From positions 6,013 to 70,012 of the forward strand of contig JADGPU010000004.1 in NCBI GenBank assembly GCA_017882305.1: a DNA stretch of 64,000 bases, read 5' to 3'. Position 1 is the first letter of the stretch. The number at the start of each line of letters is the position of its first letter. Both the position numbers and the translations under genes were made by a program. Source of the stretch: Bacteroidales bacterium (GTDB lineage Bacteria; Bacteroidota; Bacteroidia; Bacteroidales; VadinHA17). This document shows, in pieces, positions 3,896 to 40,878 of the stretch. The notes beneath the pieces are model-generated. The model searched no databases. It saw only the letters and a program-made list of their open reading frames with translations, and had not been told where the DNA came from.

Positions 3896-3934
3896 TTATC
3901 CTGTATTTCGATTTTCAACATTTTAGACATTGTA

Positions 3935-5917
3935 CTATTTCAAGACCTTAATTCTGACAATCGTAAATGAATAGGGATCGAGTATCGGACTTACTATTTT
4001 TCCATTTATTATTAATTCCTGTTCGACCGGGCTTATGAATGCAGGTTGTTCCAATGAGTTTGCATTATTAGTGTTTTCACTTTTCAGTACAATTATTTTA
4101 GCTTTTGGCATCAGTTTTTTAGATCCTTCGAGAATTATATTAGGTGTTTGGTCTTTTTCGGTTGAATTTATCAGTTTCAGTATAATTTCATTCACATTCT
4201 TATCAAAAACCGCCGAGGCAAACAATCCATTCTGTCCGGTGAGTGGTCTGTTTTTCATAAGCATAGGTAATACCTCTGTCCCCTTGTTATTTGAGAACAT
4301 TTTCTGCACATAATAATTGGCTGTTCCGAACGACTTCAGGTTATCAAACCAGATCAGGTTGGGCGTCCATTGCCATGCATCCACATGCGCAAATAACGGA
4401 GCGTAAGAACACATATACACCACATCTGCATTTCGTTCCAAACCGGTCATAAAAGCAGCTTCGGACAGGGCACATTTCCAATTGTTCTGATTGTCGGGGC
4501 TGCAGGTAAATTTACTTTGTGCAGCATATTCGCCTGCAAATATTTTGAAGCTATTGCGATCGTAGTTGTCATAACGAGTGGCATTCTGAAGGAACCATTC
4601 CGGGTTGGCATAATAATGTTCATCCACAATCTGGGCATTTAGTTTTTTCAATTCTTTGGTGGCATAATCAAAATCCTTTCCTGACGGAGATGGACCTGTC
4701 CCGGTCACAATCTTAATATCCGGATACTTTTCTTTAATAGCTTTTACAAATACAGCGTAATGCTCGATATACTGGGATCCCCATTGTTCATTGCCTATAC
4801 CAATAAATTTCAGGTTAAAGGGAGAAGGATGCCCCATTCGGGCTCGCATCTTTCCCCATCTGGAATCAGAGGAACCATTAGCGAACTCAATTAAATCGAG
4901 TGCATCCTCGATGTAAGGATCAAGTTGATCTAATGGGACTACTTCAGCTGTATTGAACTGGCAAGCCATGCCACAGTTCAATATTGGCAACGGTTCTGCA
5001 CCAATGTCTTCAGCTAGTTGAAAATATTCAAAGAAGCCCATCCCGAATGATTGAAAATAGTCGGGTGTAAGACGGTGAGCGAATTCTGTATTCCATCTGT
5101 TTACAATCAAATGACGATCTTCAATATTTCCTATCGTTTTTTTCCATTGATAACGGTTTTCCAGGTCGCGGCCTTCAACAATGCAACCACCGGGGAAACG
5201 CAGGAATCCGGGTTTTAAATCCGCAAGGAGTTGCACCAAATCGGCACGCAGTCCTCCGGGCCGTTTTTTCCAGGTGTCATCCGGGAAAAGTGAAATCATG
5301 TCAATGTCAATAGACCCTTTCCCTTCAAACCAGATGTTCAGCCTTGCCTTAGGTTCGGTAGCACTAGCAGCAAAACTAACGGTGCATTTTCCCCACGCTT
5401 TTGATTCCGGGGTCAGGTTGGTTGTTCCTATTAATTTTCCCAGGGGATTCACCAATTCGATCCGCATTTTCATGGTACTGCCCTCCAACTGCCTGGCCAA
5501 AATCGAGAAATGGTAGGTCATTCCTTTTTTAATTCCCATTCCTCTGAAACCGGCATTTGACAAACCAAAAGATGGTTCTCCTTCTACAAGGGTAACTCTT
5601 GCATAACGAGGATTGCCAGGGTTTGTTTCACTTTGGTTGATAATCAAAATACCTGATGTAGTATCGGGCTTTAGTATTTTCCAGCCCATCAATGGTTTGG
5701 CAAATTCGAACGAACGGTTTTTGACCAGTTCAGCATAAATACCACCATCAGCAGCAAAGTTGATATCTTCAAAGAAAATACCCCACATGGTGGATTGGAT
5801 AATTGCTTTGGGCTTTTCAACCCCGACAATGATGGGAAGGGTCTTTTGTGCAATTAAAGGCATCGGAACCAAAAACCCTGCAAAAGAAAGAAAGAATATT
5901 ACTATTTTACTTTTCAT
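3935..5917 (-). CDS. GH51 alpha-L-arabinofuranosidase
   Basis: 660 aa with a signal peptide. Motifs FLRFPGGCIVEG, IGIGNEQWG and FAGEYA are typical of Bacteroidetes/plant-type GH51 with an N-terminal CBM4/9-like domain. Confidence 0.75.
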   Translation of the reverse strand: MKSKIVIFFLSFAGFLVPMPLIAQKTLPIIVGVEKPKAIIQSTMWGIFFEDINFAADGGIYAELVKNRSFEFAKPLMGWKILKPDTTSGILIINQSETNPGNPRYARVTLVEGEPSFGLSNAGFRGMGIKKGMTYHFSILARQLEGSTMKMRIELVNPLGKLIGTTNLTPESKAWGKCTVSFAASATEPKARLNIWFEGKGSIDIDMISLFPDDTWKKRPGGLRADLVQLLADLKPGFLRFPGGCIVEGRDLENRYQWKKTIGNIEDRHLIVNRWNTEFAHRLTPDYFQSFGMGFFEYFQLAEDIGAEPLPILNCGMACQFNTAEVVPLDQLDPYIEDALDLIEFANGSSDSRWGKMRARMGHPSPFNLKFIGIGNEQWGSQYIEHYAVFVKAIKEKYPDIKIVTGTGPSPSGKDFDYATKELKKLNAQIVDEHYYANPEWFLQNATRYDNYDRNSFKIFAGEYAAQSKFTCSPDNQNNWKCALSEAAFMTGLERNADVVYMCSYAPLFAHVDAWQWTPNLIWFDNLKSFGTANYYVQKMFSNNKGTEVLPMLMKNRPLTGQNGLFASAVFDKNVNEIILKLINSTEKDQTPNIILEGSKKLMPKAKIIVLKSENTNNANSLEQPAFISPVEQELIINGKIVSPILDPYSFTIVRIKVLK

Positions 5918-5963
5918 ACCGGAAGTTTTATCGGATCAGCAAGTGATTGACAGTGATCAATTT

Positions 5964-7436
5964 TTAATGAATCCTGTAAAGTCCGGCTCCATGATGGCTT
6001 ATCGTCCGGGTGAATTCATTTTTGAAAGTTCCCAGGTTTTCACCACTCCAAAGATCAGTGATTTCATGAATTCCTGTGAGATCAAGAAGATCAAATTTTA
6101 CTGTGATCTGTGCAGAATCCTGAGACAGAGTTTTGCTTTCTGCATCCTGCCCCTTATCCTTACTATTAAAAAGGGCAAGGTATTTATCGCCTGTAATTGG
6201 ATCTTCTGCTGTCCAGGCAATAATATCATCTTCCCTGAAGAGTTGCTTGTTATTGATACTATGCTGATTTACAGCAATTACATCTTTATTGGTGATAAAT
6301 GATAATGTAAATCCGTCATTCCCGGGAAGATCTCCGCCAAACATCAGAGGTGACCGGAATATAGAGAAGAGAGTCATTAAAGTATATTGTTCATCTTTTG
6401 TGAAGTTTGTCATCCTGTCTAATCCTCTTTCAGCACGGATACCTATATGACCAAGGGGAAGCATATCACCATCGGGCCAGTTACCGGGTGCAACATATTG
6501 AGCCCAGCGTTCCAGTACCGAGAATTCCTCTTTAAGCTGTAACCAGTTATCCCAGAAATCACCGACAGTCCGCCACATATTGGCGTTCTTTTTAATATGT
6601 TCTATCTGTTCAACAGGGGTTGGTCCAGGCGAAGTACTCAAAACAATTTTTCTGCCGGTACGGTCAATTGCTTTCCGAATCATTTCTATCTCTTCAGTAT
6701 GATAAGGAGAAGAGAGGTCATCGATTTTAAGAAAATCAACACCCCAGGAGGCGTAAAGATCCATTATCGAGTTATAGTATTCCTGAGCACCAGATTTGGT
6801 TTTATCAACTGAATACATATCTTTCAGCCACTGGCATTGTCCTGCTGTGGAGCAGATATCCTTTGTTGTAACATTAGTTTTGAATACTGGTAGATTATTC
6901 TTTACGGCGAGTACAGGTACACCCCTCATCACATGAATACCGAATTTGAGACCTTTATCATGAATATAATCAGCCAGAGGTTTAAAACCCTTCCCATTTG
7001 CTGACGAAGGGAAACGATTCACTGCCGGTAACAAGCGACCATACTTATCAATGTTAAAGACAGGATCTTTTTCATTATAACCTCCTGATTTATCATTTGC
7101 CACATACCACCTTATATCAACTACAATATATTCCCATCCGAACTTTTTCAAATGTGCAGCCATATAGTCGGCATTAGCTTTAACTTCATTTTCAACTACC
7201 GTGGGGCCATAACAATCCCAGCTGTTCCAACCCATAGGCGGTGTAGGAGCCCATTTGTGAAAGGCAGGTATTGTAACCACTGATGTGTCCGAAATTTTAG
7301 TCTGACACAGTAAAAAAGGTTTGAGAGCAAGTGAAATTAGAATTATAAAAAATGTTCTTAAAGAGTTATTGAATAAAACCCTGATAAGACTCTTTTTCAG
7401 AATTTGTAATTTCTTTTTCATGGGATTATGACTCAA
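5964..7436 (-). CDS. GH27-family glycosidase (alpha-galactosidase / beta-L-arabinopyranosidase type)
   Basis: 490 aa with a signal peptide. Motifs PPMGWNSWDCYG and DFLKIDD are characteristic of the melibiase/GH27 fold. Confidence 0.75.
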   Translation of the reverse strand: MSHNPMKKKLQILKKSLIRVLFNNSLRTFFIILISLALKPFLLCQTKISDTSVVTIPAFHKWAPTPPMGWNSWDCYGPTVVENEVKANADYMAAHLKKFGWEYIVVDIRWYVANDKSGGYNEKDPVFNIDKYGRLLPAVNRFPSSANGKGFKPLADYIHDKGLKFGIHVMRGVPVLAVKNNLPVFKTNVTTKDICSTAGQCQWLKDMYSVDKTKSGAQEYYNSIMDLYASWGVDFLKIDDLSSPYHTEEIEMIRKAIDRTGRKIVLSTSPGPTPVEQIEHIKKNANMWRTVGDFWDNWLQLKEEFSVLERWAQYVAPGNWPDGDMLPLGHIGIRAERGLDRMTNFTKDEQYTLMTLFSIFRSPLMFGGDLPGNDGFTLSFITNKDVIAVNQHSINNKQLFREDDIIAWTAEDPITGDKYLALFNSKDKGQDAESKTLSQDSAQITVKFDLLDLTGIHEITDLWSGENLGTFKNEFTRTISHHGAGLYRIH

Positions 7437-7546
7437 TTCCTTTTAAATCAGAAACATTTATTATAATTACTTACACGTGTACTTTCACGTGTAAATATAT
7501 GAAATGAATTTTGTTTCTGACCCTCATTTTGTGGAAAAAATATCGG

Positions 7547-8626
7547 TTATTTTACATTCAGTTTGTACCATTTAATCGCATTTTCGCTGTAAATCTTTCT
7601 GATAACTTTTTTCGGAAGCTGCAGCCCTTCGAATGTTCCCTTGAATTTATCAGAAGTCATCTTATCTCGTGAAGTGAAGTATTTCCAGTCGTCGAGCCAT
7701 GTTTCATGAATCCATTTCGTGACCCTTTCGCGATCATTAGTTCCATTATCTGAAAGGTCCGTTGCGTAAAGGAGCCTGTCCTGATACTTAATACAAAAAT
7801 CACGGACTCTTTCACGATCTTTTGCCGACTGATACTGCAGATGACAAATACGGGCAGCCATGTCAACAGCCATATTCGGAAATTTATCAAGCCTTTTTGC
7901 CAGCTCATCAACATTCCATTCGAGGCTGCCAAGGTGACAACCTATAAATTTAAGATCAGGATGCAATTCGAGAAGATGGTCACGGGCATTTATCTGATCT
8001 TCATATGAAGGATATTCGGGATGGAGGAACATATGATATCGTGAATTCTCTGCAAAATAGCTGCTGTCGCTGCTCACTGTCATTTCACTTAATGGCAGCC
8101 AGCAGTTTCGTGGTTCACCAAGATGACCTGTAATTGGCAGATTCTTACTAATAATAAAATCAATGACTGGCTTTAAGGCAGGATCGTCAATCATAATGAA
8201 CTTACCGTTTTTGTCTCTTTCAGTCATTCCGATATTTTTCCAGAGCTTTACTGAAACTGCACCTCCTGAGATATTACTACCCAGATGACCAATAGCGTTT
8301 CTACTCCATGGCTCTGTTCCCCAGCCCAACGTATCAAAATAAAATGTGGCACTGTAGAAAACTTTCCCGGGATACTTGCTTATGGACAAAAGTGACCAAT
8401 TAAGTTGTTGCTTAACTGATGTTGAGTCAGAATGGTCAACATTCAGAGTAATAAGCCTGAAATTATCTTTCATTGCCTGATCTTCAAAGAATCCCATGTC
8501 GCTGTTAATGTGAACATGAGAATCGATTTTCAGAACTAATTGATAATCTTCAGATGTATAATAATTGGTATGGCATCCAGTGAATACCAATAATGCAATA
8601 ATGAAAAAAATAGTGCGGTTCTTCAT
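7547..8626 (-). CDS. Secreted amidohydrolase-family (amidohydrolase-2 TIM barrel) lipoprotein
   Basis: 359 aa. Lipobox LLVFTGCH and HxH metal motif IDSHVHIN. Confidence 0.6.
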   Translation of the reverse strand: MKNRTIFFIIALLVFTGCHTNYYTSEDYQLVLKIDSHVHINSDMGFFEDQAMKDNFRLITLNVDHSDSTSVKQQLNWSLLSISKYPGKVFYSATFYFDTLGWGTEPWSRNAIGHLGSNISGGAVSVKLWKNIGMTERDKNGKFIMIDDPALKPVIDFIISKNLPITGHLGEPRNCWLPLSEMTVSSDSSYFAENSRYHMFLHPEYPSYEDQINARDHLLELHPDLKFIGCHLGSLEWNVDELAKRLDKFPNMAVDMAARICHLQYQSAKDRERVRDFCIKYQDRLLYATDLSDNGTNDRERVTKWIHETWLDDWKYFTSRDKMTSDKFKGTFEGLQLPKKVIRKIYSENAIKWYKLNVK

Positions 8627-8661
8627 TTTTTTTAAATGTTATACAGAGATTAAATTTATGC

Positions 8662-8699
8662 AAAAAAAAGGAGAGCACAAATAATATTCTGTGCTCTTC
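8662..8699 (-). terminator. Rho-independent terminator of the 8736..9623 gene
   Basis: 10-bp stem 8670-8679/8690-8699 (GGAGAGCACA / TGTGCTCTTC, one G-U). On the minus strand it is followed by U8 (plus-strand A8 at 8662-8669). Confidence 0.75.
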
Positions 8700-8735
8700 C
8701 CACTTCAATTTAAAACGAATTTAAGTTCTCTTTAT

Positions 8736-9623
8736 CTATTTAGGCATTACAACATAAGGCGTATTGTTAAGAAAATCAAGGCTTTTCTGGCAACTTGTAA
8801 ACTGGTCGAAACTATACTCTTCAACTTCAACTACACCATATTGCATTCCCGATTTAGCAGCTGCGGCCCAGATGGCAGCAAAATCCATCATTGTATCTGT
8901 ACCGCCAATTTCTTTTTTATCTTTTATATGCCAGAGTTCGAAACGACCGGGATACTTATTGAAATAATCCACAGGTTTAGCACCGCCCATAACTGCCCAG
9001 TAAAGATCCATTTCGAACATCACTTTAGAAGGATCAGTATTTTCAAGCATGTAGTCGTAAATTGTATGACCATCCAGCTTTGTAGAAAATTCCTTATCAT
9101 GGTTATGGTAACCGAAACGAATACCCTTGGCTTTGCATTTTTCACCAATCATATTAAAATAGTCACAATAACGTTTCAGTGTATCGAGAGAACGATATGC
9201 TCCATCATCCATAAATGGCTGAACAAGATATTTTGCGCCTGCAGCAACGTGAGCATCAATACAAACATCCCACCATGCCATGGTCTTTCCATAGTTGGCA
9301 GGATCAGGAAGTGACTGACCTACGTGAGAACTCAATATTGTTAAACCATTTGATTTACAAAGAATCTTAAAAGCAGATGGTTCCATATCATAAAGTTTTC
9401 CGTCGGCATAACCTGCAGGCTCGACAAATTTATAACCCATTTTGCCTACTTTAGCAATTGCAGCAGGCACGTCCTTCATGATGGAATCACGAATGGAATA
9501 CAGCTGCAAACCTATGTTTTTCTGCGGTTTAGTTGTGTATGAATAAAAGGTGGAAATGACAAGGCCCGTAACAACTATTAACAGGACAATCGAAACAGTA
9601 CTTCTTTTTTTCATTTTGATCAA
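8736..9623 (-). CDS. Secreted sugar phosphate isomerase/epimerase-like (xylose isomerase-like TIM barrel) protein
   Basis: 295 aa. N-terminal signal/anchor (STVSIVLLIVVTGLVI). The IGLQLYSIRD opening and overall pattern match the AP_endonuc_2 / xylose-isomerase-like fold. Confidence 0.65.
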   Translation of the reverse strand: MIKMKKRSTVSIVLLIVVTGLVISTFYSYTTKPQKNIGLQLYSIRDSIMKDVPAAIAKVGKMGYKFVEPAGYADGKLYDMEPSAFKILCKSNGLTILSSHVGQSLPDPANYGKTMAWWDVCIDAHVAAGAKYLVQPFMDDGAYRSLDTLKRYCDYFNMIGEKCKAKGIRFGYHNHDKEFSTKLDGHTIYDYMLENTDPSKVMFEMDLYWAVMGGAKPVDYFNKYPGRFELWHIKDKKEIGGTDTMMDFAAIWAAAAKSGMQYGVVEVEEYSFDQFTSCQKSLDFLNNTPYVVMPK

Positions 9624-14384: not shown

Positions 14385-14444
14385 GTGAGAATATCTTTAA
14401 TCCATATTATAGTCCTCATCCTCATTATTGATCATCGCGTATGA
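14385..14444 (+). CDS. Ile/Leu/Val-rich leader peptide (19 codons, GTG start inferred)
   Basis: GTG AGA ATA TCT TTA ATC CAT ATT ATA GTC CTC ATC CTC ATT ATT GAT CAT CGC GTA TGA = MRISLIHIIVLILIIDHRV*. There is no in-frame ATG after the upstream in-frame stop at 14343-14345, so the start codon is uncertain. Confidence 0.55.
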   Translation: MRISLIHIIVLILIIDHRV

Positions 14445-14477
14445 CCCGGGAATAATATGTGTTACTATAGACATACA

Positions 14478-14511
14478 GAAGCTTTCCGGGAAACCGGGAA
14501 GCTTTTTTTTT
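14478..14511 (+). terminator. Attenuator terminator upstream of ilvD
   Basis: 11-bp stem 14479-14489/14494-14504 (AAGCTTTCCGG / CCGGGAAGCTT, one G-U), GAAA tetraloop, T-run 14503-14511. ilvD ATG is at 14528. Confidence 0.8.
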
Positions 14512-14527
14512 AATATGATTTCTTAAA

Positions 14528-26248: not shown

Positions 26249-26290
26249 TTATAAAAAATCAAGTTTTGTTATTATTTGTTAATTTTTTGC

Positions 26291-26316: not shown

Positions 26317-26373
26317 ATGTTCAACAAATCAACATTACACCATCATTTTCATCTTTGCTTTCAGGCGAGGTGA
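26317..26373 (+). CDS. His-rich leader peptide (18 aa)
   Basis: ATG TTC AAC AAA TCA ACA TTA CAC CAT CAT TTT CAT CTT TGC TTT CAG GCG AGG TGA = MFNKSTLHHHFHLCFQAR*. Four His codons fall within five positions. Confidence 0.75.
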   Translation: MFNKSTLHHHFHLCFQAR

Positions 26374-26405
26374 TAGTGATATGTATGGAAATAAAAATAT
26401 CATAA

Positions 26406-26436
26406 ACCCGTCTGAGCAGATCAGGCGGGTTTTTTT
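26406..26436 (+). terminator. Attenuator terminator upstream of hisG
   Basis: Stem ACCCGTCTGA (26406-26415) / TCAGGCGGGT (26421-26430), one G-U, followed by T7 (26430-26436). hisG ATG is at 26453. Confidence 0.8.
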
Positions 26437-26452
26437 ATTTAAAAAAAGTAAA

Positions 26453-32821: not shown

Positions 32822-32894
32822 ACCCCCTTTCATTTTCCCCCAAGGGGGAAATGTTTTTACTCCTTCCCCCGTGGGGGAAGGTTGGGAAGGGGGT
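32822..32894 (+). repeat. C5/G5 three-stem palindromic element (possible structured RNA or terminator)
   Basis: Outer stem 32822-32830/32886-32894. Hairpin 32834-32840/32845-32851 is followed by TGTTTTT. Hairpin 32862-32869/32874-32881 has a CGTG loop. There are three C5 and three G5 tracts. Confidence 0.6.
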
Positions 32895-33821: not shown

Positions 33822-33887
33822 ATGAATATTGTGTGCAAATATTTTATCTGCTTTTTCTACTTCTATTTTTATTTTAAAAACAGATAA
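33822..33887 (+). CDS. Phe/Tyr-rich leader peptide (21 aa)
   Basis: ATG AAT ATT GTG TGC AAA TAT TTT ATC TGC TTT TTC TAC TTC TAT TTT TAT TTT AAA AAC AGA TAA = MNIVCKYFICFFYFYFYFKNR*. It contains 6 Phe and 4 Tyr codons, eight of them consecutive. Confidence 0.75.
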   Translation: MNIVCKYFICFFYFYFYFKNR

Positions 33888-33927
33888 AGGGATTTTTGTA
33901 CACAGATAATTTAAATTATATGAAAGC

Positions 33928-33958
33928 AAGGGTCCCTCGGAGGGGCCCTTTCTGTTTT
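33928..33958 (+). terminator. Attenuator terminator upstream of pheA
   Basis: 10-bp stem AAGGGTCCCT (33928-33937) / AGGGGCCCTT (33941-33950), loop CGG, tail TCTGTTTT. pheA ATG is at 33975. Confidence 0.75.
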
Positions 33959-33974
33959 AATACTTTTTAAGATA

Positions 33975-37982: not shown

Positions 37983-39233
37983 ATGGAAAGATATCTGGAA
38001 CCGTCCTCAATTAAAGGTACTATCAAAGCTCCGGCTTCAAAAAGCATGACACAACGGGCAATAGCTGCAGCGTTACTGGCTGACGGTCAAAGTATAATCC
38101 ATAATCCCTCGTATTGCGATGATTCATTGGCAGCAATGAGTATAGCAGTCGGATTGGGTGCCAGGGTTGAACCTCAGGTTAACCAACTTAAGATAAATGG
38201 GTCTGCAATTCTGAAAGAACCTAAGCTGAATTGTGGTGAATCGGGGCTGGCAATCCGTATGTTTTCCCCTATTGCTGCTTTATATCCTGCTGAAATTACG
38301 ATGGTTGGAGCGAATTCTCTTAAAAGAAGGCCAATGTTCATGATTGAAGATGCTTTAAATCAGCTTGGAGTGAAGTGTACAAGCTCTGGTGGATTTCTTC
38401 CTCTTACAATTGAGGGACCAATAGTCGGTGGAAATTGCGAAATTGACGGTTCGGTAAGCAGCCAGTTATTAACAGGATTGCTAATGGCTTTGCCTCTGGC
38501 TGCAAAAAACTCTGAAATCAAGGTCAATAACCTGAAAAGCAAACCATATATTGATATGACGATCCAGATTCTGAAGTCATTTGGTATATCTGTAGAGAAT
38601 CAAGATTATTGCCTGTTCAATATTCAGGGAAATCAAAAGTATACCCCTCATAGTTATACAGTGGAGGGTGACTGGAGCGGAGGAGCATTTCTCCTGGTTG
38701 CCGGTGCCATTAACGGTCAGCTGTGTGTCAAGGGACTTCGGAGAGACAGCATGCAAAGTGATATGGCAATAATTAACGCGCTGGAGAATGCCGGTGCACA
38801 TATTAAAGTGGGTGAAGATCAGATTGAGATTACCAAATCAGAATTAAAAGCGTTTGAATTTAATGCTACAGAATCACCGGATCTGTTCCCTCCACTTGTT
38901 GCACTAGCTTCCTATTGTGAAGGAATTTCAACAATCAAAGGTGTATCAAGATTAATATATAAGGAAAGTGACCGGGCCAAAGCTCTTAAGGAAGAGTTTG
39001 GCAAAATGAATGTTAAGATTGAAATTAGTGATGATATGATGTATGTGACCGGAGGAAGTCCACAGGGCGCCAGGGTTGAATCGCATGATGACCATCGCAT
39101 TGCAATGGCCATTGCTGTTACGTCACTTGGAGCTACAGGAAAAGTATCTATCAGAGACTCACAATGCGTCGCAAAATCATATCCCGGTTTCTTTGATGAT
39201 CTCAGACATCTTGGTGCTGTTGTTCATGAATGA
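37983..39233 (+). CDS. aroA: 3-phosphoshikimate 1-carboxyvinyltransferase (EPSP synthase)
   Basis: 416 aa. KAPASKSMTQRA and DHRIAMA motifs. Confidence 0.9.
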   Translation: MERYLEPSSIKGTIKAPASKSMTQRAIAAALLADGQSIIHNPSYCDDSLAAMSIAVGLGARVEPQVNQLKINGSAILKEPKLNCGESGLAIRMFSPIAALYPAEITMVGANSLKRRPMFMIEDALNQLGVKCTSSGGFLPLTIEGPIVGGNCEIDGSVSSQLLTGLLMALPLAAKNSEIKVNNLKSKPYIDMTIQILKSFGISVENQDYCLFNIQGNQKYTPHSYTVEGDWSGGAFLLVAGAINGQLCVKGLRRDSMQSDMAIINALENAGAHIKVGEDQIEITKSELKAFEFNATESPDLFPPLVALASYCEGISTIKGVSRLIYKESDRAKALKEEFGKMNVKIEISDDMMYVTGGSPQGARVESHDDHRIAMAIAVTSLGATGKVSIRDSQCVAKSYPGFFDDLRHLGAVVHE

Positions 39234-39337: not shown

Positions 39338-39345
39338 TATTTTTG
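39338..39345 (+). promoter_or_regulatory. Candidate -7 promoter box (TATTTTTG) of the Trp leader
   Basis: TAnnTTTG match, but only 5 nt before the leader ATG. This would imply a leaderless or near-leaderless leader transcript, so confidence is low. Confidence 0.3.
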
Positions 39346-39350
39346 TCGCT

Positions 39351-39425
39351 ATGCAAACAAGGACTTTTTATATTTGGTCGTGGCGCAGCTCAACTGATTT
39401 AGCTGTGAAACAAGCCATTATATAA
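39351..39425 (+). CDS. Trp-containing leader peptide (24 aa)
   Basis: ATG CAA ACA AGG ACT TTT TAT ATT TGG TCG TGG CGC AGC TCA ACT GAT TTA GCT GTG AAA CAA GCC ATT ATA TAA = MQTRTFYIWSWRSSTDLAVKQAII*. Two TGG codons lie at 39375 and 39381. Confidence 0.75.
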   Translation: MQTRTFYIWSWRSSTDLAVKQAII

Positions 39426-39451
39426 CACTTATAAGATATTTATTTATAGAG

Positions 39452-39483
39452 GCATGCTGTTCACAGCGTGCTTTTTTTGTTTT
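39452..39483 (+). terminator. Attenuator terminator upstream of trpB2
   Basis: Stem GCATGCTG (39452-39459) / CAGCGTGC (39464-39471), loop TTCA, then TTTTTTTGTTTT (39472-39483). trpB2 ATG is at 39517. Confidence 0.8.
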
Positions 39484-39516
39484 AATATTTTTAACAAACA
39501 CTAATATTTAACAATT

Positions 39517-40878
39517 ATGGAAAAGATCAGAAAAATCATCTTAAGCGAAAGCGAAATGCCAAGGCAATGGTATAATATCATGGCAGATATGCCTAATAAA
39601 CCCATGCCGCCATTGAATCCGGCTACAAAACAACCAGTCGGCCCGGAGGACCTTGCTGCTGTTTTTCCCATGGAACTTATAAAACAGGAGGTATCAGCCG
39701 AGAGGTATATTGATATACCGGATGAGGTACTTGACCTCTACACTACCTATCGTCCCTCACCTATCTTCAGGGCACTTAGCCTTGAAAAAGCACTGGGCAC
39801 AAAAAGCAAGATCTACTACAAGTATGAAGGCGGTAATTATTCCGGCTCTCATAAAGCCAACACTGCAATTGCACAGGCATATTATAACAAAATGGAAGGC
39901 ATAAAAAGAATTACCACCGAGACCGGAGCCGGACAGTGGGGAAGCGCCATGAGTTTCGCCTGCCACCACTTCGGAATTGAACTACTGGTCTTCATGGTAA
40001 GGGTCAGCTATGAGCAGAAGCCAGGCCGCAAACTTTTGATGAACACCTATAATGCCAAGGTAGTAGCTTCACCAAGCACTATGACCGTGGCTGGAAGAAG
40101 AGTCCTTGAACTGGACCCCGACTCACCAGGAAGTCTGGGGATAGCAATTTCCGAAGCAATGGAAGTGGCGGTACAGGATCCTTATACTAAATACTCGCTC
40201 GGCAGCGTTCTCAACCATGTTATCCTTCACCAGACCATCATAGGACAGGAAGCACTTCTTCAGATGGAAAAAGCAGGCGATTACCCTGATGTTGTGATCG
40301 GCTGTTTCGGAGGAGGTTCAAACTTCTCCGGCATTGCATTTCCATTCCTTCGCGAAAAGTTGATTAACAAAAAAAATATCAGGCTTCTGACTATTGAACC
40401 TGCCTCATGCCCTAAACTTACAAAAGGAAAATTTATGTACGACTTCGGCGATTCGGCAGGAATGACCCCTCTCCTTCCTATGTACACACTCGGCCATAAT
40501 TTTATACCAGAAAAGATACATGCAGGTGGTTTACGTTACCACGGTGCAGGAGTTCTTGTAAGCCAGCTCCTCAAAGACGGATTTATTGAGGCAAGGGCAA
40601 AGATGCAGAGGGAATGTTTTGAAGCAGGTGTACTTTTCGCAAGGTCGGAAGGTATTCTTCCTGCTCCCGAATCGACATATGCTATTGCCGGCGCTCTTGA
40701 TGAGGCAAGAAAGGCCGACCTGGAAGGCGTCTCAAGGATAATACTCTTTAACCTGAGTGGCCATGGCCATTTCGATATTTCTGCTTATGAGAAGTACTTC
40801 GAAAACAATCTTCCGGATCATGAAATGACAACGGCAGAGGTTGAGGAGGCAATATCTAAAATTAATATTACTGTTTGA
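39517..40878 (+). CDS. trpB: TrpB2-type (TrpB-like) tryptophan synthase beta chain
   Basis: 453 aa, longer than TrpB1. N-terminal extension ...MPRQWYNIMADMP..., PLP lysine in GSHKANTA, GGGSNFSG loop. Confidence 0.85.
   Translation: MEKIRKIILSESEMPRQWYNIMADMPNKPMPPLNPATKQPVGPEDLAAVFPMELIKQEVSAERYIDIPDEVLDLYTTYRPSPIFRALSLEKALGTKSKIYYKYEGGNYSGSHKANTAIAQAYYNKMEGIKRITTETGAGQWGSAMSFACHHFGIELLVFMVRVSYEQKPGRKLLMNTYNAKVVASPSTMTVAGRRVLELDPDSPGSLGIAISEAMEVAVQDPYTKYSLGSVLNHVILHQTIIGQEALLQMEKAGDYPDVVIGCFGGGSNFSGIAFPFLREKLINKKNIRLLTIEPASCPKLTKGKFMYDFGDSAGMTPLLPMYTLGHNFIPEKIHAGGLRYHGAGVLVSQLLKDGFIEARAKMQRECFEAGVLFARSEGILPAPESTYAIAGALDEARKADLEGVSRIILFNLSGHGHFDISAYEKYFENNLPDHEMTTAEVEEAISKINITV

Follow-up and report, generated by a model that had tools for sequence, protein, structure and literature searches.

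Trp (tryptophan) leader peptides upstream of trpB and trpE have been described in Bacteroidetes (Weinberg et al. 2010, Genome Biol 11:R31, PMC2864571; Rfam family RF01692, Bacteroid-trp), where the published note on the family speaks of a 'loosely conserved hairpin' and, as far as that note goes, gives neither a consensus diagram nor an antiterminator model. Trp attenuators built on short open reading frames (ORFs) rich in one amino acid have also been predicted outside the Proteobacteria, in actinobacteria, before non-canonical targets including trpS2 and an additional copy of trpB (Seliverstov et al. 2005, PMC1262725). In the present analysis a 64,000-nucleotide (nt) stretch of DNA from a Bacteroidales bacterium (assembly GCA_017882305.1, contig JADGPU010000004.1, positions 6,013 to 70,012; hereafter the window, with position 1 as its first letter) was examined, in which a Trp-codon leader precedes trpB2, the gene for a stand-alone TrpB2-type tryptophan synthase beta chain. 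The leader is interpreted, with a probability of roughly 0.85, as a ribosome-mediated leader-peptide transcription attenuator coupling trpB2 expression to the supply of charged tRNA-Trp, the Trp-dependent read-through being predicted from the sequence. The attenuator type is already known in Bacteroidota and the new point is its target, a stand-alone TrpB2; the predicted leaderless start and an explicit three-state model are also noteworthy. The elements of the switch and the two flanking genes are as follows (MFE, minimum free energy).

39338 to 39345, + strand: predicted Bacteroidota sigma-A -7 box, TATTTTTG, reading TAnnTTTG; from the sequence, with conserved spacing
39351 to 39425, + strand: leader peptide ORF of 24 codons, MQTRTFYIWSWRSSTDLAVKQAII followed by TAA; read directly, with orthologues in relatives
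39375 to 39383, + strand: regulatory Trp codons TGG-TCG-TGG (codons 9-11), with TGG at 39375 and 39381
39368 to 39425, + strand: anti-antiterminator (1:2) hairpin, 19 pairs, -16.8 kcal/mol; present in the MFE fold and backed by covariation
39402 to 39422, + strand: antiterminator upstream strand, region 2 and its 3' extension; pairs with 39445-39467 under a ribosome mask
39445 to 39467, + strand: antiterminator downstream strand, running from the terminator 5' arm through the loop TTCA into the first 4 nt of the 3' arm
39448 to 39483, + strand: intrinsic terminator from a terminator scan, with a 12-bp stem (39448-39475), loop TTCA and an overlapping T7GT4 tract (39472-39483)
39517 to 40878, + strand: trpB2, stand-alone, 453 amino acids, the regulated gene; a COG1350-type TrpB-like enzyme dependent on pyridoxal phosphate
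37983 to 39233, + strand: aroA, the upstream neighbour; outside the switch and given for context only

The leader carries what defines a classical trpL-type attenuator, namely clustered cognate codons, mutually exclusive 1:2, 2:3 and 3:4 pairings that are backed by covariation, and a Rho-independent terminator as the 3:4 element. With E. coli trpL (RF00513) it shares the tandem Trp codons, the 1:2 anti-antiterminator, the 2:3 antiterminator and the 3:4 terminator, as well as an antiterminator that is weaker than the terminator, hence kinetic control. It differs from trpL in taxon and promoter type, has no Shine-Dalgarno sequence and probably a leaderless start, and controls one salvage-type gene rather than the trpEDCBA operon; in addition, its antiterminator is strongest where it engages the terminator loop and proximal 3' arm, and does not draw on the 5' arm alone. 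With Bacteroid-trp it shares the phylum and a short ORF with at least two UGG codons in the 5' arm of a hairpin, followed by a GGC-rich terminator. The actinobacterial attenuators belong to another phylum and have unrelated sequences, and the same is true of the leaderless cysteine-responsive attenuator ORFs of mycobacteria, which are likewise short regulatory ORFs.

The gap between the aroA stop codon (39233) and the trpB2 ATG (39517), read directly from the sequence, is 283 nt long, and this gap, the 24-codon ORF and both TGG codons were found exactly where a first-pass annotation of the window, made without database searches, had placed them. The 5' half of the 1:2 hairpin (39368-39390) holds both Trp codons and region 1 (CGCAGCT, 39384-39390), while the 3' half (39401-39425) holds region 2 (AGCTGTG, 39401-39407), GCCA and TATATA. 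The 7-bp pairing of region 1 with region 2 (one G-U pair included) that the annotation had read was present, but it is only part of a hairpin that comprises 19 pairs, in which UGGU also pairs with GCCA and UAUAU with AUAUA. Its 2:3 pairing, an 8-bp perfect complementarity between GCTGTGAA (39402-39409) and TTCACAGC (39460-39467), was similarly correct in sequence and too short in extent, as the pairing runs on into the terminator 5' arm (39402-39422 with 39445-39467). The terminator core GCATGCTG/CAGCGTGC (39452-39471) with the T7GT4 tract behind it was recovered by the terminator scan, which lengthened the stem to 12 pairs with a folding energy of -15.6 kcal/mol. Structure prediction, which had been proposed beforehand as a check, placed both the 1:2 hairpin and the terminator in the MFE fold of 39340-39490 (-38.4 kcal/mol, z = -3.06), and equally good folds were obtained in 0 of 200 shuffled sequences.

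Relatives were collected by a one-genome-per-species scan with TrpB2, from which the best 80 of at least 588 loci were retained (71-96% TrpB2 identity); this set leaves out the more distant TrpB2 lineages (Bacteroides, Chlorobi and others). All except one of the 80 loci are labelled as Bacteroidales, Bacteroidia or Bacteroidota metagenome-assembled genomes (MAGs), with origins in fens, sediments and digesters. The remaining locus, L049 (CAVTMS010000010.1), is labelled as a 'Candidatus Bathyarchaeota archaeon' MAG; it shows Bacteroidales synteny (tyrA-aroG-aroA-leader-trpB2-NIPSNAP-DUF6807) and 86% TrpB2 identity, and is probably a mis-binned contig.

Of the 79 loci whose upstream sequence was long enough, 77 have a W-x-W leader ORF roughly 160 nt ahead of trpB2. 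In an alignment of 78 leader sequences (A1; made with MAFFT, no structure fitted), which had also been proposed in advance, Trp occupied codons 9 and 11 in all 78 leaders with TGG invariant, and the start codon was ATG in 76 and GTG in 2. The middle codon between the two varied (TGG in 15, CGC in 16, TCN in 34, others in the rest), 16 leaders reading WWW. Leader peptides were 14-24 amino acids long, and their first eight codons varied in sequence while their number stayed constant. Relative to region 2, the leader stop codon came earlier in 26 leaders, fell inside in 9 and came later in 43; the position beyond region 2 that the annotation had given is therefore right for the window but describes only 43 of the 78 leaders. 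The gene upstream of the leader-trpB2 module was aroA in 51 loci, hisIE in 7, aroG/chorismate mutase (CM) in 5, pheA in 4 and an unrelated gene, in some cases on the opposite strand, in 10. A module that is portable across at least five upstream contexts argues that the leader belongs to trpB2 and needs a promoter of its own.

Such a promoter was sought in the form of the TAnnTTTG box, the result of a sigma-70 promoter scan being disregarded as irrelevant to Bacteroidota. In the window, 5 nt separate the end of the -7 box from the leader ATG; the same distance of exactly 5 nt between a TAnnTTTG box and the start codon was counted in 66 of the 78 leaders, and a distance of 3-6 nt in 71. A search of the 64-kb window for the composite pattern TAnnTTTG-N5-ATG-N21-TGGNNNTGG gave a single occurrence, compared with 0.00 expected by chance. 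In Flavobacterium johnsoniae the -7 box lies at -12 to -5, with a spacing of 4-5 nt between the box and the transcription start site (PMC6847099), and from this spacing a leader 5' untranslated region of 0-1 nt would follow for a box 5 nt before the ATG. The leader ORF is thus predicted, from promoter-box spacing only, to be translated from leaderless or nearly leaderless RNA.

Compensatory changes were present in all three alternative helices. In A1, 97.2% of cells in the terminator were paired, with 7 pairs changed on both sides; 81.2% were paired in the 1:2 hairpin (6 pairs changed on both sides) and 95.8% in the 8-bp antiterminator core (4 pairs changed on both sides), compared with 22-50% when the partners of the core were shifted by 1-3 columns as a control. 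The GCC:GGC pairs of the antiterminator were conserved, with 7 double changes. Columns 45, 58, 130 and 118 (region 1, region 2, terminator 3' arm and 5' arm, respectively) carry C, G, C, G in 44 of the sequences, while 3 have T, A, T, A, a four-way covariation which ties region 1, region 2 and both terminator arms together. A change of G63 to A was accompanied by a change of C125 to T in 5 sequences (gctgtAa/tTacagc). Even a loop base took part, column 123 covarying with column 65 (A:T in 46, T:A in 7), so that gctgtgaA/Ttcacagc is replaced by gctgtgaT/Atcacagc in the latter 7 sequences. When RNAalifold was run with no prior structure it recovered the UGGU/GCCR and CGCA/UGUG pairings of the 1:2 hairpin, as well as the terminator. 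The GCTGTGA...TCACAGC repeat was also considered as a DNA operator and was rejected, as its halves change complementarily, lie about 50 nt apart and each pair with a third segment.

Switching was modelled by masking the footprint of a ribosome with its A site on either Trp codon in nascent RNA extending up to 39471. The MFE fold of the masked window RNA was the extended antiterminator (-18.8 kcal/mol), in which 39402-39409 pairs with 39460-39467, CA with UG, GCC (39414-16) with GGC (39451-53) and UUAUA with UAUAG; in this structure the terminator is occupied from its 5' arm through the loop to the fourth base of the 3' arm. Among free transcripts of the 78 leaders, the MFE fold contained the terminator in 78, the 1:2 core in 71 and the antiterminator in none, whereas with a ribosome masked at Trp codon 11 and the core of the 3' arm just emerged the antiterminator was the MFE fold in 55. 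Together with the conserved Trp codons and the covariation in the three helices, this footprint-dependent change of the predicted fold supports the trpL-type logic that the annotation had put forward.

The following sequence of events is proposed. Transcription would start from the Bacteroidota-type promoter, and the leader would be translated from (nearly) leaderless RNA. In Trp-replete cells the ribosome would move past Trp codons 9 and 11, region 2 (GCUGUGAA) would be either under the ribosome or recaptured by region 1 in the 39368-39425 hairpin, and the 12-bp terminator at 39448-39475 would form, ending transcription in the U-tract before trpB2. In Trp-starved cells a ribosome would stall at 39375-39383, its footprint would melt the 1:2 hairpin along its 5' half, and the freed region 2 and the next 13 nt could pair with 39445-39467. 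This pairing would be initiated at GCC:GGC in the terminator 5' arm and at UGAA:UUCA in the loop, while the 3' arm is still emerging, so that the terminator would be kinetically blocked and RNA polymerase would enter trpB2, whose product is expected to make tryptophan from indole and serine or O-phosphoserine.

Several observations weigh against this interpretation and were set against it. In 23 of the 78 masked, truncated folds the nascent terminator was still favoured, and the complete terminator outcompeted the antiterminator in 71 of 78 even with region 1 masked. If the complete terminator is thermodynamically favoured, antitermination must depend on kinetics, as it does in E. coli trpL; the loop UUCA and GGC are transcribed ahead of the 3' arm, which would give the antiterminator a head start, and this order of emergence would account for a terminator loop that is conserved and covaries. 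In two loci (L005, about 3944-4000, and L041, about 3915-4000) the leader ORF and regions 1 and 2 were lost and the terminator stands directly after aroA with trpB2 intact, hence the leader is dispensable in some lineages; in L005 drift has turned the terminator loop and 3' arm into TTCATAGC, as would be expected with the region 2 partner gone. To our knowledge, tight coupling of transcription and translation has not been demonstrated for Bacteroidota. Finally, leaderless mRNAs are a minority among the Bacteroidota studied, amounting to 5.5% in F. psychrophilum (PMC9723704).

Three other explanations were weighed against ribosome-mediated attenuation. The same RNA structures could be set by a trans-acting sensor, for which a TRAP-like Trp-binding protein, uncharged tRNA-Trp read by a T-box-like fold and a small molecule bound by an aptamer come into consideration. 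The long conserved hairpin at 39368-39425 would offer such a sensor a conceivable binding platform, and translation of the leader ORF is itself a prediction, but a search for T-box, riboswitch and other sensor families gave no match up to an E-value of 10, and only three GAG/UAG triplets occur in 39351-39450, where TRAP sites need 9-11 spaced (G/U)AG repeats. Moreover, the invariants of the leader are an in-frame ATG, exactly eight codons, TGG-NNN-TGG and a stop, with the middle codon drifting among synonymous Ser codons and others, a pattern which is the signature of a reading frame and not of an aptamer, and a sensor of this kind is accordingly considered improbable.

It is also very improbable that the short terminated transcript or the 24-amino-acid peptide acts in trans, as a small RNA or a micropeptide, with cis control of trpB2 being secondary. 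Terminated attenuator transcripts can serve as small RNAs in other bacteria, and the peptide's 3' part (AVKQAII) appears conserved; that conservation is, however, explained by the RNA pairings encoded there, and the stop position varies between 14 and 24 codons, cutting the AVKQAII segment in 35 of the 78 leaders, while in none of the loci examined did the element occur without trpB2. As an addition to cis control, a role of the RNA or peptide in trans is conceivable, although the variable stop position speaks against a conserved peptide. Hardly credible is a constitutive terminator of the aro operon followed by an unregulated trpB2, with the WSW ORF and the complementarities coincidental: although L005 and L041 do have a terminator directly behind aroA without a leader, and the terminator scan and reading of the sequence gave no separate terminator between aroA and the leader in the window (such that aroA read-through, if any, would meet the attenuator too), the leader, promoter box and terminator accompany trpB2 whichever of five kinds of gene lies upstream, opposite-strand genes among them, the Trp codons are kept in nearly all loci, the composite pattern is not expected by chance in the window, and a plain terminator would not need a loop that is conserved and covaries with region 2.

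The relationship of the attenuator to curated RNA families was assessed with Rfam, for which no match was obtained in the window at gathering thresholds. The window scored 27.6 bits (E = 0.4) against RF01692, with a gathering score of 49, and 14.6 bits against RF00513 Trp_leader, with a gathering score of 41. None of 16 diverse trpB2 leaders reached the gathering score of RF01692 (best 40.4 bits, L077), and the best relative against RF00513, L049, also remained below the gathering score (39.3 bits, E = 1.4e-4). In a permissive search RF01692 led, and RF01692 and RF00513 were the sole sensible sub-threshold matches. The locus nevertheless has the short ORF with at least two conserved UGG codons, upstream of a Trp-synthesis gene in Bacteroidetes, by which RF01692 is described.

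As a positive control, canonical leaders were retrieved from metagenomes by a search with the TrpC of the operon found in one relative (L070, see below); three short contigs were close and the rest were 43-50% identical and presumably, as a guess, of flavobacterial origin. On the canonical trpE-operon leaders so obtained RF01692 scored 56-77 bits. A covariance model built solely from the trpB2 leaders (R1) matched RF01692-positive leaders at the same positions (L113, L118, L114, L104 and L111; E = 7e-9 to 1e-4) and about 30 further canonical leaders, with E-values of 7e-9 to 0.05 overall, and the downstream ORF was TrpE where checked. In these canonical leaders (L113 3782-3932, L131 3213-3364, L104 3910-4048 and others) region 2, GTCGTGA or TTGTCGCAAT, pairs with the terminator loop and 3' arm, TCACGAC or ATTGCGACAA, as it does in the trpB2 leaders, and in a subset (L117, L139) a -7 box likewise adjoins the ATG. 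The RF01692 model and seed stop in the terminator 5' arm, so the pairing of region 2 with the 3' arm is not encoded in them. The two groups differ in the core pairing, which is GUCGUGA/UCACGAC in the canonical leaders and GCUGUGA/UCACAGC in the trpB2 leaders, and in the target, which for the latter is a stand-alone TrpB2 paralogue and not an operon, the published note on the family naming only 'trpB and trpE'. The trpB2 leader thus appears to be a diverged branch of the Bacteroid-trp design, homologous to it, trpL-like, and scoring below both curated thresholds. The first-pass annotation had in this respect over-rated the novelty of the element, given that Trp leaders before trpB and trpE in Bacteroidetes were already described and are detectable relatives. 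A literature search, whose coverage was incomplete and which is weak evidence for that reason, gave no dedicated Trp-starvation attenuator before a stand-alone TrpB2; on trpB2 in connection with leader peptides, attenuation, T-boxes or riboswitches it returned, apart from general TrpB2 papers, only the actinobacterial 'trpB2A', a name for a second trpB copy.

By its profile scores, the regulated protein belongs unambiguously to the TrpB2 type. It scored 702 bits against NF009057 (cut-off 366) and 623.5 bits against TIGR01415 (cut-off 518.85), and only 133.8 bits against TIGR00263, the canonical trpB model (cut-off 392.45). The best matches in the PDB, at 377-438 bits, were 6hul_B, 4qys_B and 6hte_B, which are annotated only as tryptophan synthase beta chains and which we take to be the TrpB2 proteins of S. 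solfataricus, whereas TrpB1 chains scored about 130 bits or less. Pfam and NCBIfam profile searches found no trp gene besides trpB2 in the whole 64-kb window, which bears out the solitary TrpB2-type target, with no trpA nearby, that the annotation had described. Characterised TrpB2 enzymes bind indole with high affinity and use O-phospho-L-serine, according to the statement in PMC11917138 that cites Hettwer & Sterner 2002 and Busch et al. 2014, and the physiological role of TrpB2 outside operons has been described as 'not identified yet' (PMC1854888). A dedicated Trp-codon attenuator argues that the cell wants TrpB2 when Trp-tRNA is scarce, and this is consistent with Trp synthesis from scavenged indole as a possible salvage role, a role that the annotation had likewise over-rated.

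In one relative, L070, a canonical trpC-trpF-trpB-trpA cluster (5955-9305, - strand; Pfam IGPS, PRAI, PALP and Trp_syntA) was observed, convergent with the leader-controlled trpB2 and about 0.6 kb from it, so that the two systems coexist in at least that genome. The trpB gene of this cluster is broken into a pair of ORFs (6724-7503 and 7490-7909), pointing to either a frameshift or a mistake in assembly.

In the window, aroA is the final gene of a pheA-aminotransferase-tyrA-aroG/CM-aroA operon, which is itself part of a single amino-acid biosynthesis supercluster on the + strand (14.5-40.9 kb). Its blocks are, in order, ilvD-ilvBN-ilvC-leuA-leuCD-(cimA/leuA)-leuB, hisGDCBHAF with hisIE, the phe/tyr/aro genes, and leader-trpB2, giving 26 kb of co-directional genes (14528-40878) with four leader-peptide attenuators, three of them candidates described below. 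Block order is shuffled between relatives, hisIE, pheA or aroG/CM preceding trpB2 in some genomes. The remaining genes of the window encode glycosidases, oxidoreductases, transporters and a phosphate-regulation pair (a PhoU-domain protein and a response regulator).

The other candidate leaders each precede one of the three strongest terminators in the 14-34 kb region, and none had an Rfam match at threshold. Upstream of ilvD, a candidate branched-chain leader ORF with a GTG start (VRISLIHIIVLILIIDHRV, 14385-14444; unit 14385-14512) is followed by a 13-pair terminator (14477-14506) and a T-run. Upstream of hisG, a candidate His leader ORF (MFNKSTLHHHFHLCFQAR, 26317-26373; unit 26317-26440) has a 12-pair terminator (26404-26432) behind it and a TAtcTTTG box 18 nt ahead of its ATG, and R1 matches this leader weakly (E = 0.19). 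The program-called hisG ORF (TTG at 26276, 344 amino acids) spans this leader, with the HisG domain beginning only at residue 110, and the true hisG start is probably the ATG at about 26454. Upstream of pheA-aat-tyrA-aroG/CM-aroA, a candidate Phe/Tyr leader ORF (MNIVCKYFICFFYFYFYFKNR, 33822-33887; unit 33822-33960), with a TActTTTG box 20 nt upstream, is followed by a terminator (33928-33950) and TCTGTTTT. Three further leader-terminator units with cognate codon runs point to attenuation as the general style of the cluster. Separately, a 10-pair hairpin at 32831-32853 (CATTTTCCCCCAAGGGGGAAATG followed by TTTTT) in the hisF-hisIE gap overlaps the program-called hisIE start (32851); possible readings are an internal terminator, an internal attenuator or a mis-set hisIE start.

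For the study of attenuation in Bacteroidota, these results provide a full three-state model of Trp attenuation backed by covariation, which goes beyond the hairpin of the original family note. RF01692 misses the trpB2 subfamily, and the 78-sequence alignment could be used to extend the model. The predicted leaderless leader and the presence of four attenuators in one supercluster would make this region a test bed for transcription-translation coupling in a phylum without Shine-Dalgarno initiation.

For TrpB2 itself, the leader provides regulatory evidence, conserved in more than 75 species-level genomes, that a stand-alone TrpB2 would be switched on at low levels of charged tRNA-Trp, and it supports tryptophan as the physiological product of the enzyme, a role debated since TrpB2 was recognised. 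A more speculative extension, which we hold to be possible though rather unlikely, is that the trpB2 leaders form a distinct, leaderless and Rfam-unrecognised branch of Bacteroidota Trp attenuators, that TrpB2 is a scavenger of indole (with serine or phosphoserine) induced by Trp starvation, and that it may be the only route to Trp in some Bacteroidales of peat, sediments and digesters. If TrpB2 were indeed the only such route, its hosts would be conditional Trp auxotrophs dependent on indole from the community.

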